A stretch of 58,758 nucleotides of DNA, from the NCBI GenBank assembly GCA_964457785.1, contig CAYWEX010000005.1:1-58758 (forward strand), read 5' to 3'. The position numbers and the translations under genes were made by a program. The notes below the pieces were generated by a model. That model did no database searches. It was not told the DNA's origin and saw only the letters and a program-made list of their open reading frames with translations. The stretch is from Candidatus Woesearchaeota archaeon. Its GTDB lineage: Archaea > Nanobdellota > Nanobdellia > SCGC-AAA011-G17 > JACPIM01. Every line of letters starts with the position of its first letter. The first letter of the stretch is position 1. Of the stretch, positions 22,480-58,758 are shown one piece after another.

Positions 22480-23016
22480 ATGAAAATTGGTGTAAGGGTT
22501 TTGGATGCTATGACAAAAAATCCAGTAGTTGTCAATGCAAATATGTCTATTTCTGAATGTGCGAGAGTCATGGAAGAAAATAAGGTAGGGAGTGTTATTG
22601 TAAAAGATGAGAATTTACTAGGAATAATAACAGAAGAAGACATAGTAAGAAAGGTGGTTTCAAAAAAACTTAATCTAGAAACTACGAATACAAAAAACAT
22701 AATGGTAAGCAATTTATTTACTACTTCTGGAAAAGAAGACATTTATGATGCTTTGATGCTGATGAAAGACAAGAAAATAAACCACCTTCCTGTTGTCCAG
22801 AATAATGAATTAATAGGGTTTTTAACTTTAAAAGATATTTTAAAAATCCAGCCAAGATTAGCTGAACTTGTTGTTGAAACTTTTGATTTAAGAGAAGAAG
22901 ACAAGAAATCTGAGTTATTCAAGAAAAAAATTGAGGGAGACTGCGACAACTGCAAAAACTTTTCAGTTTTACATTATTCTAATTCTAAATGGGTTTGTGA
23001 AGAATGCCTAGAATAA
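22480..23016 (+). CDS. CBS-domain pair protein with C-terminal zinc ribbon
   Basis: two CBS repeats (GIITEEDIVRKV, HLPVV..GFLTLKDIL), CDNC..CEEC. Confidence 0.92.
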   Translation: MKIGVRVLDAMTKNPVVVNANMSISECARVMEENKVGSVIVKDENLLGIITEEDIVRKVVSKKLNLETTNTKNIMVSNLFTTSGKEDIYDALMLMKDKKINHLPVVQNNELIGFLTLKDILKIQPRLAELVVETFDLREEDKKSELFKKKIEGDCDNCKNFSVLHYSNSKWVCEECLE

Positions 23017-23097
23017 GCTTTTAGAAAAAGCTTAAGCAAAAATAAGAACTAACCCTTTTCGCGAAAAGCGTTAACGGAAAGGTTCTTATCAACTCCT
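23014..23097. repeat. modular palindromic intergenic repeat, copy a
   Basis: TAAGCTTTT..AAAAAGCTTA, then TAAGAAC..GGTTCTTATCAACTCCT; modules recur at 23221, 23963, 32132, 45361, 47744, 53401, 57374, 58668. Confidence 0.85.
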
Positions 23098-23283
23098 AAA
23101 AATTGAGTGAAAGATTTTTATTTGATTTAAAAATAATTTGAAAGATTTACGAATATAATCCTAAAACCGGAAATGTTTCGAAAATTTCTCAGAACTTATT
23201 ATAAACAATTAAACCCTTTAAACCTTTTTGAAAAAAAGCTTTACCAAAAAAGCGTTTACGGAAAAAGAAAAATGATGTGAAAA

Positions 23284-23355
23284 GCCAGCATAGGTTAATG
23301 GTAAACTAATGGGATTGTCACTCCATGGATGCGGGTTCGATTCTCGCCGATGGCT
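23284..23355 (+). tRNA. tRNA-Asp(GTC)-like, non-canonical or degenerate
   Basis: good D-arm and T-arm (GCGGG-TTCGATT-CTCGC), loop TTGTCAC; two acceptor-stem mismatches, one extra nt in the anticodon stem, T at the discriminator. Confidence 0.6.
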
Positions 23356-23419
23356 CACAATAGCTAAAAGCTATCAAGAATAATTTAGTATTTAGAATTT
23401 ATAAGGTTTTTGGAAAAAT

Positions 23420-23962: not shown

Positions 23963-24097
23963 TAAGATTTTTATTAAAAAGCTTAAGCAAAAATAAGAAC
24001 CCAGGTTCTTATCAACTCCTCATAAAAAGAACTAACCCTTTAAACATTTTAAAAAAAGCTTTACCAAAAATAAGAACCAAGGTTCTTATCAACTCCT
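23963..24097. repeat. modular palindromic intergenic repeat, tandem double copy
   Basis: two rounds of AAAAAGCTT..CAAAAA-TAAGAACC-NN-GGTTCTTATCAACTCCT. Confidence 0.85.
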
Positions 24098-52872: not shown

Positions 52873-53403
52873 ATGGTTAATTTAACTTGGAATAAATCCA
52901 GTGAAGCTGAACTGGAAAAAGCCTATAGGTCAACTGACAATATAGGGGATAAAACTCCGTATTATGGCACTCCAATAGTTTACCGAGGAAATACTGGTTT
53001 ATTTAGCGGTGATGACGGGGTATTAAACTGGTTATTTGGAAACAGATATTTATTTTTAGTTATAGAAACTAAAAGAGAGAAAATGGGGGCTGGAGGCATT
53101 CATTATATTGGCTGCAAGCAAAATGTTTTTTCTTTCAGGTCCTCAAGACAAAACTATAATAGATCTGACGTAATCAGGGATTTTAATTTAATGCTTGAAT
53201 TAATTGGTGTGGGAAGAACAGAATTTTTCGAGTCTTTAGAAAATATTTTTGAGAAAGAGAGTACAGAACAAAAAACTTTAGAAAGTTTAATCAACATGTT
53301 AAATCCTAATGACTTTGGCAAAGCAGAAAAGGAATTAGCTAAACGACACAAAGAGGCATTAGCAGAAAAAACAAATAAAGATAAAAAAGAAATAACTGAA
53401 TAA
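52873..53403 (+). CDS. hypothetical protein
   Basis: 176-aa ORF. Confidence 0.65.
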   Translation: MVNLTWNKSSEAELEKAYRSTDNIGDKTPYYGTPIVYRGNTGLFSGDDGVLNWLFGNRYLFLVIETKREKMGAGGIHYIGCKQNVFSFRSSRQNYNRSDVIRDFNLMLELIGVGRTEFFESLENIFEKESTEQKTLESLINMLNPNDFGKAEKELAKRHKEALAEKTNKDKKEITE

Positions 53404-53437
53404 AGCTTTTTTCTAAAAAGCTTTACCAAAAAGGAGA
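53401..53437. repeat. palindromic repeat module overlapping a stop codon
   Basis: TAAAGCTTTTT..AAAAAGCTTTACCAAAAA. Confidence 0.75.
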
Positions 53438-53450
53438 AATTGTAAAAAAC

Positions 53451-53575
53451 TGGGCCCGATCAGATTTGAACTGACGACCTTTGGCTTTCTTAGATATGTA
53501 TGTTAGAGTGCCATATAAGACTTGCACAACTTCAATTGAAGTTACAATGCTCTAACCAGGCTAAGCTACGGGCCC
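53451..53575 (-). tRNA. tRNA-Ile(UAU) with two BHB introns (29/30 and 37/38)
   Basis: exons 53575-53545, 53521-53514, 53486-53451 give a 75-nt cloverleaf with anticodon TAT and A73; both introns form BHB motifs. Confidence 0.88.
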
Positions 53576-53647
53576 AAAGTTTTTGGAAAAGTTTAATCAA
53601 ACTAGACCAAAAGATATTAAGAAATGATTTTGGATTGTTTATAAAGT

Positions 53648-56816: not shown

Positions 56817-57314
56817 TTATAGTATTTCTCTTTCTGATTTAAATTTTTCTCTTATTGTGAATGAGTCACATACAAAACCTCTTTGCAATGAGTAGTCACC
56901 TTTTTCTTTTTGATCCTGCTCTTTTTCATAATCTTCAACACAAATATTGTATATACCTGGCGGAAGACTTGTTGCCAAACTAAAATAAAATGTGACTGGG
57001 CTTTTTGCATCACCCAAACATTTGTAATGCCTGTTTGTTTTTTCAACATTATCATTGCATACTGAATTTGTAGTAGCAACTCGAGAATTATGATCATAAA
57101 GATAAGCTCTTTCATTAACTCCAAACTTACCTGTGATAACTTCTACTTTAACTCTTTGACCTGAACCTTCTTCAACAACTTTAGGAGAAATTGTTACAGA
57201 AGGCTTATCTGAGTCTCTTATAGTAGAACCTGAGATAGTATCTAAATTAAAAGACAATAAAGTTACAAATATCAATAATATGATTGCTACAAGAACTCTA
57301 TTGTTTTTATCCAT
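56817..57314 (-). CDS. membrane-anchored secreted protein (paralog of previous gene)
   Basis: N-terminal TM..LSFN..SGSTI, beta-rich body with Cys residues. Confidence 0.75.
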   Translation of the reverse strand: MDKNNRVLVAIILLIFVTLLSFNLDTISGSTIRDSDKPSVTISPKVVEEGSGQRVKVEVITGKFGVNERAYLYDHNSRVATTNSVCNDNVEKTNRHYKCLGDAKSPVTFYFSLATSLPPGIYNICVEDYEKEQDQKEKGDYSLQRGFVCDSFTIREKFKSEREIL

Positions 57315-57373: not shown

Positions 57374-57410
57374 AACTTTTTAAAAAAAGCTTCACCAAAA
57401 TTAAGGAGAA
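57374..57410. repeat. palindromic repeat module
   Basis: AACTTTTT-AAAAAAAGCTTCACCAAAA..AAGGAGAA. Confidence 0.7.
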
Positions 57411-57411
57411 A

Positions 57412-57879
57412 TTATTTCCTGCGATAGTAAAGGCCCATTAAAACTGATTCTTTTAATATATGTCCTTTCATAGCTTCTTCTACTTGTTTTTTTGATGCTC
57501 CTTGGTTTAAATTTAATTCTATATCTAATGCAAAGAGTTTGAAAAAATATCTGTGCTGCTTATCTGGGGGACAGGGACCTGAATAAGAAAGTTTAGTGTT
57601 TGTATTAATGCCTAATTTTCCTTGTGGATTTATGCCTTCTTCTATTTTTGTTATATTTGGCGGTATATTGAATACGATCCAGTGATCCCACATACCATCT
57701 GCTCTTATTGTTTTTGGAACATCCGGATCTTCCATTATCAATACCAATGATTTTGCTTCTTTTGGAACATCTGAAATTTCCAAGGGAGGAGATATATTCT
57801 TGCCATCACAAGTATATTCTTCTGGTATTTTTTTGCCATTTTCAAATCTTGGACTTGAGATTATCATAGAACATAACAT
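57412..57879 (-). CDS. YbhB/YbcL (PEBP) family protein
   Basis: CDGKNISPPL, EDPD, WDHW, YSGPCPP, HRYFFKLFALD; start may be the ATG at 57867. Confidence 0.93.
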   Translation of the reverse strand: MLCSMIISSPRFENGKKIPEEYTCDGKNISPPLEISDVPKEAKSLVLIMEDPDVPKTIRADGMWDHWIVFNIPPNITKIEEGINPQGKLGINTNTKLSYSGPCPPDKQHRYFFKLFALDIELNLNQGASKKQVEEAMKGHILKESVLMGLYYRRK

Positions 57880-57899: not shown

Positions 57900-58586
57900 T
57901 TATTTTTTTAAATAAAACTTTCTTTTTTCTTCATCAAATTTTTCAATAGCATATCTTAAAGCTGTTCTAGGCATTTCCTTTTTGTATTTATTTAAGAATT
58001 CCAATTCTAAATTTAAATCTTTTTTTCCGACTTCCCGCAACATCCAACCCAGCGCCTTATGAATTAAATCATGAGAGTCATTTAACAAGATTTTTGAGAT
58101 CTCTAATGTGTCTTGAAAATTATTATTTTTAATAAATGTATAAGTTGAAATTATAGAAATTCTTCTTTCCCACAAACTATTGGATTTTGCTAATTTATAC
58201 AAGATATCCTTGTTTTTATCAAATAAATATTTGCCCAAAATATTTGGGGCAGACAGGTCGACTAAGTCCCAATTATTTACGAATTTTATGTTTTTTAAAT
58301 AGAAATCAACTATATTTTTTTCATGATTTTTTTTGAATTTTTCAACTAGGATTAATAATGCGGTTAATCTGTGTTCATGAATATTAGACTGCAATAAATT
58401 TTCCAAATCTTCTAAAACTAAAGATAAATATTTTTTTGCTATTTTTCTTTGATCTGGGACTGTTATACCTAAAAAAGAATCTCCCTCCCCATATTGTCCT
58501 TTGCCTGTCTTAAAATATTTTGATAAAATAACAGCTTTTTCCTTATCTGCTAAATTGTTTAAATCTTGTTTTAACTGACTTAACAT
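57900..58586 (-). CDS. alkD: DNA alkylation repair glycosylase, AlkD family
   Basis: GEGDSFLGITVP, NNWDLVD, LWERR, LIHKALGWMLRE, MPRTALRYAIE. Confidence 0.9.
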   Translation of the reverse strand: MLSQLKQDLNNLADKEKAVILSKYFKTGKGQYGEGDSFLGITVPDQRKIAKKYLSLVLEDLENLLQSNIHEHRLTALLILVEKFKKNHEKNIVDFYLKNIKFVNNWDLVDLSAPNILGKYLFDKNKDILYKLAKSNSLWERRISIISTYTFIKNNNFQDTLEISKILLNDSHDLIHKALGWMLREVGKKDLNLELEFLNKYKKEMPRTALRYAIEKFDEEKRKFYLKK

Positions 58587-58641
58587 TTATCATTCAAAAA
58601 CCAATACCTTTAAAAAATTATATTTTCACTAAAAAAACTAA

Positions 58642-58757
58642 GCTCCTGTAGTCTAGCCCGGTCAAACTAAGCTTTTAAAAAAAGCTTAATCAAAAATTAG
58701 GACCAAGGACAACGGCCTTTCGCGCCGTGAACCCGAGTTCAAATCTCGGCGGGAGCA
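58642..58757 (+). tRNA. tRNA-Glu(UUC) with a 41-nt BHB intron in the D-loop (21/22)
   Basis: exons 58642-58665 and 58707-58757 give a 75-nt cloverleaf; BHB central helix GGTC/GACC, outer helix CTAA/TTAG. Confidence 0.9.
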
Positions 58758-58758
58758 T

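Follow-up and report, generated by a model that had tools for sequence, protein, structure and literature searches.

A short hairpin repeat shared by gene boundaries and tRNA introns in a groundwater archaeon of the Woesearchaeota type

Near the end of a 58.8-kb contig from a tiny groundwater archaeon, the gene for tRNA-Glu(UUC) carries a D-loop intron with a core that resembles a repeat dispersed between genes of the same contig. How did one sequence come to sit in both places? An initial annotation of this DNA offered two answers: an element of the repetitive extragenic palindrome (REP) or miniature inverted-repeat transposable element (MITE) kind entered the tRNA gene or its intron and is tolerated through splicing at a bulge-helix-bulge (BHB) structure, or excised introns seed the repeat family. 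The window analyzed here is the whole contig (C5; 58,758 nt) of an 802-kb assembly in 19 contigs, with 29% GC and an estimated completeness of 86%. Metagenome-assembled genomes labeled Woesearchaeota or Nanoarchaeota are the closest public relatives of this genome (G000), and G001, G002, and G003 belong to the same genus (g1). The explanation that we favor, with some reserve, is that the repeat, here termed M1, is a portable gene-boundary hairpin element, carried along like a passenger at the tip of a relaxed-BHB intron that is competent for splicing.

The gene occupies positions 58642 to 58757 (GCTCCTG...GGGAGCA). As a precursor, it is detected neither by ARAGORN nor by Rfam at gathering score, and an E-value-based search gives a weak tRNA match to its 3' part only. 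Once 41 nt (58666 to 58706) are removed, the remaining 75 nt form a regular cloverleaf that ARAGORN calls as tRNA-Glu(ttc). This spliced 75-mer aligns end to end (1-75) with the uninterrupted tRNA-Glu(UUC) of G023 (89%) and of G009, and these orthologues define the exon junction; the 5' exon is 100% identical in G001, G003, and G008. The cloverleaf and the orthologues thus agree with the initial annotation, which had placed a 41-nt intron at position 21/22. From the sequence, we infer that this intron is removed from tRNA-Glu by splicing. The parts of the locus are as follows.

58607..58617, + strand: CCTTTAAAAAA, a TATA-like element some 35 to 25 nt before tRNA-Glu (about -35 to -25); kept upstream in G001, G002, and G003
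58642..58665, + strand: 5' exon of tRNA-Glu(UUC), positions 1-21 (acceptor strand, D-stem GUCU, D-loop AGCCCGGUCAA)
58660..58663, + strand: 5' strand of central helix H, GGUC, exonic; 5' cleavage site 2 nt downstream
58666..58706, + strand: 41-nt intron at D-loop position 21/22, relaxed BHB, as judged from the cloverleaf after removal, the orthologue junction, and folds
58668..58696, + strand: M1 copy, hairpin UAAGCUUUU-AAA-AAAAGCUUA followed by tail AUCAAAAA
58701..58704, + strand: 3' strand of central helix H, GACC, intronic; 3' cleavage site 2 nt downstream
58707..58757, + strand: 3' exon of tRNA-Glu(UUC), from D-stem GGAC to discriminator A, 1 nt short of the contig end

A TTTAWAWA element lies at an equal distance before most other tRNAs of G000, and the TATA-like element at 58607-58617 probably also serves the divergent gene at 57900-58586 (-). 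Contig ends adjoin intron-bearing tRNA genes at 1 to 4 nt both here (58757-58758) and on contig C14 (gene 5-114); the assembly seems to break at tRNA flanks, perhaps from adjoining repeated modules.

All of the acceptor, D, anticodon, and T stems are retained when the precursor is folded at minimum energy (z = -3.4), and a 4-bp helix and the 9-bp hairpin UAAGCUUUU-AAA-AAAAGCUUA extend from the D-loop. Both splice sites lie 2 nt 3' of helix H, which is the symmetry expected for a BHB, and the pairing of this helix is kept in G003 and G008 and, by eye and with one G-U pair, in G001. The 5' site forms a canonical 3-nt bulge only in an alternative fold (h' CUAA/UUAG) that lies 2.8 kcal/mol above the minimum, and the 3' site falls in a 2x5 internal loop adjoining the D-stem; for these two reasons we class the BHB as relaxed. 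The modeled splice-site geometry is consistent with such a motif. The description of the BHB as intact therefore holds for the 4-bp helix and the symmetric sites but not for the 5' bulge, with its extra energy cost, or for the 3' site. One gene for the splicing endonuclease (EndA) is present, on contig C13; its 195-aa product has both N- and C-terminal domains (PF01974 and PF02778). Kaneta et al. tied single-subunit EndA of DPANN archaea to heavily disrupted tRNA genes (PMC5829648). The EndA gene stands head-to-head with, and slightly overlaps, a gene for a metallo-beta-lactamase-fold protein with an HWHGDH motif, which looks like RNase Z; the two would form a small tRNA-processing gene pair.

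The core of the intron belongs to a sizable repeat family. M1 is an AT-rich hairpin with a tail, of the form TAA(G/A/C)CTTTT, a 3-5-nt loop, AAAAG(C/T)TTA, and then an A-n-CAAAA tail, and it spans 28-29 nt in the Glu intron. The 29-mer at 58668-58696 matches 23014-23042 at 27/29 positions (2 mismatches), and two such matches arose in 0/100 dinucleotide shuffles. Other in-window sites (23221, 23963, 24040, 53401, and 57374) match at 23-26/29 positions with 1-3 small indels. The initial annotation had called the module near-exact at 23014, 23963, 53401, and 57374, which is accurate for the first; the other three are looser, yet clear family members. Genome-wide, the core pattern AAAG[CT][CT]TnAnCAAA has 98 matches versus 6-12 (~9) in Markov-1 simulations, and 90 of the 98 (~92%) lie in the 11% of the genome that is noncoding by crude open reading frame (ORF) calls. 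A stem of at least 6 bp lies just upstream in 62/82 copies classed as intergenic and in 8/8 copies in recognized tRNAs, while pattern matches inside ORFs mostly have no stem and are about as numerous as expected by chance. The copy number of M1 in G000 is some 70-100. Chance or low complexity as the source of these matches is ruled out by the shuffles, the Markov expectation, and reversed-pattern controls, all of which the real sequence exceeds.

With the intron and its flanks as the query, BLAST matches end at the CAAAAA end in 37 of the 60 best and start between TAA and the T-run. Because the matches stop at module edges, the repeated unit is the module and not the intron. The introns of tRNA-Glu(UUC) and tRNA-Gly(UCC) (C9 15863-15890) have an identical 28-mer between unrelated flanks, and the AATC/GCTT subtype of M1 is confined in G000 to two tRNA introns. 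Across the family, the M1 3' arm AAAAG[C/T]TT covaries with the variable tail base (GTTT with AATC, 44/49; GCTT with C or G, 43/46), which could reflect subfamily descent or structural coupling. Both M1 strands have runs of T4-T7. A depletion of T-runs in intron copies, which would avoid termination, was considered (T>=5 in 3/8 versus 45/82 intergenic copies) and dropped, as intron copies in relatives often have T5.

How common is M1 in other tRNA introns? A structure-guided search found 32 tRNA genes in G000; introns interrupt 25 of these and add up to ~1,072 nt. A check of the other tRNA introns for the module, as the initial annotation had proposed, yielded eight further copies besides that in tRNA-Glu.

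tRNA-Glu(UUC): D-loop intron, M1 sense
tRNA-Gly(UCC): D-arm intron, M1 sense
tRNA-Arg(GCG): D-loop intron, M1 sense
tRNA-Gly(GCC): D-loop intron, M1 sense
tRNA-Gly(GCC): second intron, 37/38, M1 sense
tRNA-Thr(CGU): 37/38 intron, M1 sense
tRNA-Trp(CCA): 37/38 intron, M1 sense
tRNA-Phe(GAA): D-loop intron, M1 antisense
tRNA-Arg(UCG): 37/38 intron, M1 antisense

These nine copies compare with 0.97 expected at the intergenic density (Poisson tail, 9e-7), which is a ninefold or so difference in density (~8.4/kb in introns versus ~0.9/kb in intergenic DNA). The best-formed M1 hairpins are also found in introns (mean, 8.9 bp versus 6.9 bp). Another module, M2 (TAAGAACCnnGGTTCTTATCAACTCC), occupies the intron of the tRNA at C4 64876-65009, and other hairpin modules are likewise intronic. 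No rRNA genes were found in the G000 assembly.

Two of the interrupted tRNA genes are well hidden. tRNA-Trp(CCA) (C3 70076-70233; L032 6077-6234), at 158 nt, apparently has three introns, in the D-arm, at 37/38, and in the T-arm; by inspection, the 37/38 intron is an M1 copy in a canonical hBHBh' motif, and two more M1 copies follow the gene. Neither ARAGORN nor Rfam detects this tRNA, and Rfam has no match for the M1 copy inside it at C3 70146. tRNA-Pro(GGG) (C13 3769-3865) has an intron within the T-arm, CCCGG|ATAGTTATATTGAACTAGGGAAC|TTCAAATCCGGG, and is also undetected by standard finders.

Comparison of sister genomes indicates turnover at shared intron sites, which hold M1 in one or the other orientation, a different hairpin module, a short intron without a module, or no intron. 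Over five syntenic proteins (1,231 aligned positions), identity is 77.5% between G001 and G003, ~70% from G000 to either, ~61% from G002 to those three, and ~58% from G008 to the others, and the likeliest species tree is ((G000,(G001,G003)),G002),G008. The Glu(UUC) D-loop intron is at the same site in all five genomes. Its core is an AAGCTT-type M1 in G000 and G003 (39/41 nt identical), an AAAC/GTTT type with a compensatory G-C to A-U change in G001 and G008, and a different hairpin in G002, a grouping that conflicts with the species tree, in which G001 and G003 pair. G001 and G003 have in common a T-loop intron (59/60) in tRNA-Glu with a shared 3' end (...ATGAAAG); its core is M1 in the former genome and an M2-like hairpin in the latter. 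As neither G000, G002, and G008 nor the outgroups have this intron, it is probably a recent gain. Other tRNA genes vary in a similar way.

Phe(GAA), D-loop: M1 antisense in G000; no intron in G001; M1 sense in G002; unrelated hairpins in G003 and G008
Arg(GCG), D-loop: M1 in G000, G001, and G002; M2-like 32-mer in G003; not recovered in G008
Arg(UCG), 37/38: M1 antisense in G000; hairpin only in G001; sense and antisense M1 in G002 and G008; M1 sense in G003
Gly(GCC), D-loop: M1 in G000 and G003; no intron in G001; no orthologue recovered in G002; not recovered in G008
Glu(CUC), D-loop: 15-nt module-free intron in G000; M1-type introns in G001 (35 nt), G002 (31 nt), and G003 (41 nt); not recovered in G008

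The BHB-forming 3' end of the tRNA-Phe intron (GGCTAAG) is conserved in G000, G002, and G008. In G003, the M2-like 32-mer is common to the Arg(GCG) D-loop intron and the Glu T-loop intron, and the Gly(CCC) gene of G002 has a 16-nt intron at the Gly(GCC) D-loop site. In G001, tRNA-Phe(GAA) (L075) is precisely uninterrupted and tRNA-Gly(GCC) (L089) has no D-loop intron, while its closest relatives have both; this suggests clean loss of the two introns.

Beyond these five genomes, the Glu intron with M1 was not found where the repeat is lacking. The module-poor, distant G016 and G040 have 21-24-nt introns without M1 at Glu(UUC) 21/22, and the gene is uninterrupted in module-poor G009 (same family) and G023 (same order). 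Across relatives, tRNA-Glu(UUC) thus has an M1 intron, another hairpin, a short module-free intron, or none, and module-bearing Glu introns occur only in lineages where M1 is abundant.

Outside tRNA genes, M1 sits at gene boundaries. Positional statistics rest on the crude ORF calls (ATG-initiated, at least 70 aa). Read in its own direction, M1 has its hairpin side against the adjoining feature. Among 44 copies that follow a gene end, 25 are 8-19 nt away, and the hairpin often opens with the stop TAA itself. Another 36 copies face a start, and 13 of them lie 12-18 nt from an opposite-strand ATG or a tRNA 5' end. By eye, the T-rich end (TTTTTGGTnAAGC) of reverse-oriented copies falls ~30-35 nt upstream of the start or tRNA 5' end, which is about where the TTTAWAWA box of other G000 tRNAs is found, and for 8/13 copies that abut a start, the nearest 70 nt contain no further TATA-like sequence. 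This geometry, the scarcity of other TATA-like elements, and the T-runs on both strands make it plausible that M1 acts as a promoter and/or terminator at gene boundaries. The copies in the window outside tRNA-Glu are listed below.

23014..23042, + strand: closest in-window M1 (27/29); hairpin begins at the stop TAA of the upstream gene
23221..23250, + strand: M1, TACC subtype, upstream of tRNA-Asp; then M3 module AAGCGTTTACGGAAAAA
23963..23993, + strand: M1 with M2 hairpin TAAGAACCCAGGTTCTTATCAACTCC directly after
24040..24070, + strand: M1, then M2 hairpin
53401..53432, + strand: M1 flush with the stop of gene 52873-53403; orthologous site empty in G001 and G003
53578..53600, - strand: M1-like, reversed, abutting the 5' end of tRNA-Ile (53451-53575, -); kept in G001 and G003, absent in G002
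57374..57401, + strand: M1 between the stop of 57412-57879 (-) and the conserved TATA of 56817-57314 (-); this genome only

Some of these copies come and go between species. At 53401-53432, M1 fills the gap from the stop codon to the 3' end of tRNA-Ile, and in G001 and G003 this gap is 13-18 nt long without a module. At 57374-57401, M1 lies between the stop codon and a TATA box plus Shine-Dalgarno sequence that are conserved in four species, and M1 is missing there in G002 and G003. G000, G001, and G003 all retain the reverse M1 that abuts tRNA-Ile on its 5' side, with changes that preserve the hairpin, and G002 has an ordinary TATA instead. Nested and tandem M1 copies exist.

Other modules keep company with M1. 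In the window at 23044-23087, an M2 hairpin (AAGAAC...GGTTCTT) encloses M3 (CCCTTTTCGCGAAAAGCGTTAACGGAA) in its loop, so modules can sit in each other's loops, as M1 does in intron loops. The M2 hairpin (TAAGAACCnnGGTTCTTAT) has ~20 copies, often between a GGAG Shine-Dalgarno-like sequence and an opposite-strand ATG (e.g., C5 45362, C1 70127, and C10 8154), where folding would bring the ribosome-binding site near the start codon. tRNA-Asp(GTC) at 23284-23356 and tRNA-Val(GAC) at C9 27663-27736 (-), both intronless, have nearly identical flanks (aaagcgtttacggaaaaagaaaaatRatgtgaaaa before and acaatagctaWagctatca... after the tRNA), and the T-arm of tRNA-Asp is GGTTCGATTC, unlike the genome's usual GGTTCAAATCC. 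The two look like a duplicated, possibly foreign, tRNA cassette.

The family is not peculiar to one genome. Counts of a 16-mer, AAAAGYTTNANCAAAA, are 47-85 in the four g1 genomes, 69 in G008, and 52-64 in G019 and G047, which belong to another family; they drop to 10-17 in G020, G017, G045, and G034 and to 0-4 in the remaining 50 relatives, versus 0-2 for a reversed-pattern control. Other genera of the same family are among the low-count (0-4) relatives. Within the order, only scattered lineages have M1 in abundance, with a consensus that is identical across families. Long tRNA matches in G047, G019, G020, and G017 span an M1 coordinate, which extends the association with introns to three further families.

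M1 also occurs in virus-like DNA. In IMG/VR, the hairpin-plus-tail pattern is found in 75 stretches (L105-L179), many with multiple or tandem copies, and the reversed pattern gives 7 single matches. Loci of note are L107, L105, L150, L114, L123, L137, L145, and L160. L107, a 14-kb virophage-like contig, encodes two Sputnik-type capsid proteins, collagen and ankyrin proteins, and a protein with a DUF5906 domain below the Pfam threshold; its 8 M1 copies lie at gene boundaries with the geometry seen in G000. L105 and L150 encode capsid proteins of the nucleocytoplasmic large DNA virus (NCLDV) type. Proteins tested from four virus-like contigs had no match in G000, with which only the 28-37-nt module is common (91-96% identity). 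M1 may be a promiscuous element, or these may be viruses with Woesearchaeota-type hosts.

How, then, would such an element come to lie in tRNA-Glu? Under the passenger explanation, EndA would recognize the relaxed BHB formed by exon GGUC and the last 10 nt of the intron, and the distal 28-29 of the 41 intron nt, one M1 copy, would be cut out with the intron at no cost. Elsewhere, M1 adjoins stop codons, opposite-strand starts, and tRNA ends and may provide them with oligo-T terminator and promoter-like sequence, and its copies are gained, lost, and exchanged between species. Accumulation at intron tips in either orientation is expected because the endonuclease reads only the basal BHB and the distal part is removed. 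We judge it fairly probable, on this basis, that the tRNA introns of these archaea are places where a small repeat element lands. As for the Glu intron itself, M1 appears to have arrived in, or been converted within, an intron that was already spliceable: module-free introns exist at the same site, and the Glu intron minus its module would be ~12-13 nt long, near the 15 nt of the Glu(CUC) intron, so it probably predates M1 or is independent of it. The discordance between intron cores and species tree, together with the 39/41 identity, points to replacement or conversion, or to selection on sequence. The proposal that an element in the intron is tolerated through BHB splicing fits these module-free introns at 21/22 and the differing cores in sister genomes. 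The link to intron gain, proposed as direct, is no more than indirect: the Glu D-loop intron is probably older or independent. The probable T-loop gain in G001 and G003 does have module cores.

Several observations weigh against the passenger explanation. The two sites with empty orthologues (53401 and 57374) have no visible target-site duplication in genomes that are ~25-30% diverged, a DNA divergence at which insertion and deletion are not rigorously polarized. No mobilizing enzyme tracks M1 in the Y1 transposase and reverse transcriptase profiles across relatives: the Y1 transposase (PF01797) is absent from G000-G003, G019, G047, and G020 (G000 is 86% and G001-G003 are 96-98% complete), is present in module-poor G004, G006, and G023, and has no correlation with M1 abundance. 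The near-identical copies at gene boundaries of virophage-like and NCLDV-type contigs fit a functional signal at least as well. By eye, the flanking intergenic DNA of the Glu introns in G000 and G003 differs at many positions, while the introns are 39/41 identical; this identity and the constancy of the consensus across families could reflect selection on sequence function. The crude ORF calls behind the positional statistics are a further weakness.

One alternative is that M1 is a purely functional, nonmoving cis-signal, such as a bidirectional terminator/promoter, kept by selection and similar by convergence. Intron copies might then act, e.g., as promoters (antisense or 3'-half), as attenuators, or as the intron-side helix that cleavage requires. 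The fixed geometry to starts and tRNA 5' ends, with a T-rich end ~30-35 nt upstream near the TTTAWAWA position, agrees with this alternative, as do the 8/13 start-abutting copies without another TATA-like element within 70 nt, the tRNA-Ile upstream copy kept in three species with hairpin-preserving changes, the identical consensus across families of the order, and the presence of 8 boundary copies on a 14-kb virophage-like contig with little room for junk. M1 in virus-like contigs raises the odds of a functional gene-boundary signal. However, most genera in the family of G000, with the same basal machinery, have no M1; at 57374, the conserved TATA and Shine-Dalgarno sequence suffice in all species and M1 is extra in G000 only; intron copies occur in both orientations; orthologous introns have unrelated hairpins, nothing, or no intron at all; a tRNA gene would be harmed, not helped, by an internal terminator or promoter; and copies are nested and in tandem. 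We regard a pure cis-signal as rather unlikely. The narrower proposal that M1 is the promoter consensus of the lineage was rejected as a full explanation, given the patchy distribution and the extra copy beside the conserved TATA at 57374.

The remaining alternatives concern the direction of transfer between repeat and intron. Excised archaeal tRNA introns are stable RNA circles, and if they were copied back to DNA, tRNA introns could be the source of the intergenic copies. The density of M1 (~8.4 versus 0.9/kb) and the quality of its hairpins are highest in introns, the AATC/GCTT subtype is found only in two G000 tRNA introns, and G000 has a reverse transcriptase fragment. Yet no intergenic match reaches past the module edge into splice-site flanks or shows a circular-junction permutation, introns contain M1 in either orientation, and reverse transcriptase is absent from module-rich G001, G002, G019, and G047 and present in module-poor genomes. 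The missing flanks and the reverse transcriptase distribution led us to reject retro-copying; the second answer of the initial annotation is not supported, and we consider an intron source highly improbable. Insertion of M1 could instead have created the Glu intron, the element landing in an uninterrupted gene and being spliced out immediately or before long. The module and 12 nt account for nearly the whole intron, uninterrupted Glu(UUC) genes exist in the same family (G009) and order (G023), and the T-loop intron of G001 and G003, a probable gain, has module cores; set against this are the 15-24-nt module-free introns at 21/22 in G016, G040, and G000 Glu(CUC) and the 4-nt inverted exon match with the right spacing that would be needed together with the insertion. 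That the module made this intron is very unlikely. A more general version, to which we give a small but somewhat larger chance, holds that M1-type hairpins are a vehicle for the birth and growth of new BHB introns, landing at the DNA level and spliceable at once, since the M1 hairpin would supply the intron-side helix and a few bases beside it would pair with the exon; the probable T-loop gain in G001 and G003 already has cores of this kind. If this version is true, the arrival of archaeal tRNA introns would be directly testable, and the copies in virophage-like and giant virus-like contigs would point to virus-borne spread.

Under the passenger explanation, many tRNA introns have an interchangeable cassette as their distal part, drawn from the repeat family that also marks gene boundaries, and sister species differ in cassette type, orientation, and intron presence. 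No general route of tRNA intron arrival emerged from a 2026 census of Asgard archaea (bioRxiv 10.64898/2026.10.13.758758); the Woesearchaeota-type lineage offers a concrete, datable system for intron arrival and change. The intron-rich tRNA data explain why standard finders miss many tRNA genes in such genomes. A 28-nt element common to an archaeon and virus-like contigs also needs explaining.

Among known systems, bacterial REP, BIME, and REPIN sequences, which RAYT (Y1 HUH) transposases mobilize, resemble M1 in being short extragenic palindromes with tens to hundreds of copies that follow genes as singlets, tandems, or inverted doublets, undergo lineage-specific expansions, and may act as terminators or mRNA stabilizers. 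Unlike REP/RAYT systems, M1 is archaeal, lies inside tRNA introns, and has no Y1 transposase in the M1-rich genomes tested; membership in REP/RAYT was therefore rejected, and with the cognate enzyme absent from the genus, the REP-like label of the initial annotation does not apply. With regard to MITE features, the unit is ~28-35 nt, its "inverted repeats" are the hairpin arms, and no duplication was seen, divergence being limiting. The reverse M1 geometry fits an archaeal B recognition element (BRE)/TATA box ~26 nt upstream, but M1 is missing from most related genera. Rickettsia palindromic elements (RPEs) are ~100-150 bp long, occur in a reduced genome, and are tolerated in essential genes, including RNA genes, where they are kept in the product. 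M1 is likewise a small palindromic repeat tolerated inside essential genes with function spared; it is shorter, and the insert would be removed by host intron splicing. In Mimivirus, the "hairpin rule" places AT-rich palindromes right after stop codons and is not known to be sequence specific. M1 has a similar post-stop placement and differs by its conserved tail and a fixed consensus shared with archaeal genomes.

On the side of splicing, broad-specificity EndA, including alpha4 enzymes with an L3 loop in DPANN, cleaves noncanonical BHB introns (PMC5829648; PMC3239211). G000 resembles these systems in its relaxed-BHB D-loop intron, its single ~195-aa two-domain EndA, and its 25/32 interrupted tRNA genes; neither of those papers reports a dispersed repeat family in intron cores, which is where M1 introns differ. 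Our literature search found no description, for DPANN archaea, of repeats that gene boundaries and tRNA introns have in common. What comes closest is intron "transposition" in Thermoproteales, summarized as similar introns in different tRNAs, of unknown mechanism and presumed to occur at the DNA level (PMC4090602), and used as a positive control in the Asgard census (bioRxiv 10.64898/2026.10.13.758758). Similar intron sequence in different tRNAs is also what we observe, in the 28-mer of Glu(UUC) and Gly(UCC), in Trp(CCA) (91% over 35 nt), and in the G003 32-mer. In Thermoproteales, the similarity reportedly extends over the whole intron, including the splice-site region, whereas here only the distal 28-32-nt module is shared and the BHB flanks are tRNA specific. 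M1 is also far more common outside tRNA genes, at gene boundaries, and the available summaries of the Thermoproteales case describe no such extragenic copies. A shared module that is smaller than the intron and mainly extragenic is what sets M1 apart from the Thermoproteales introns.

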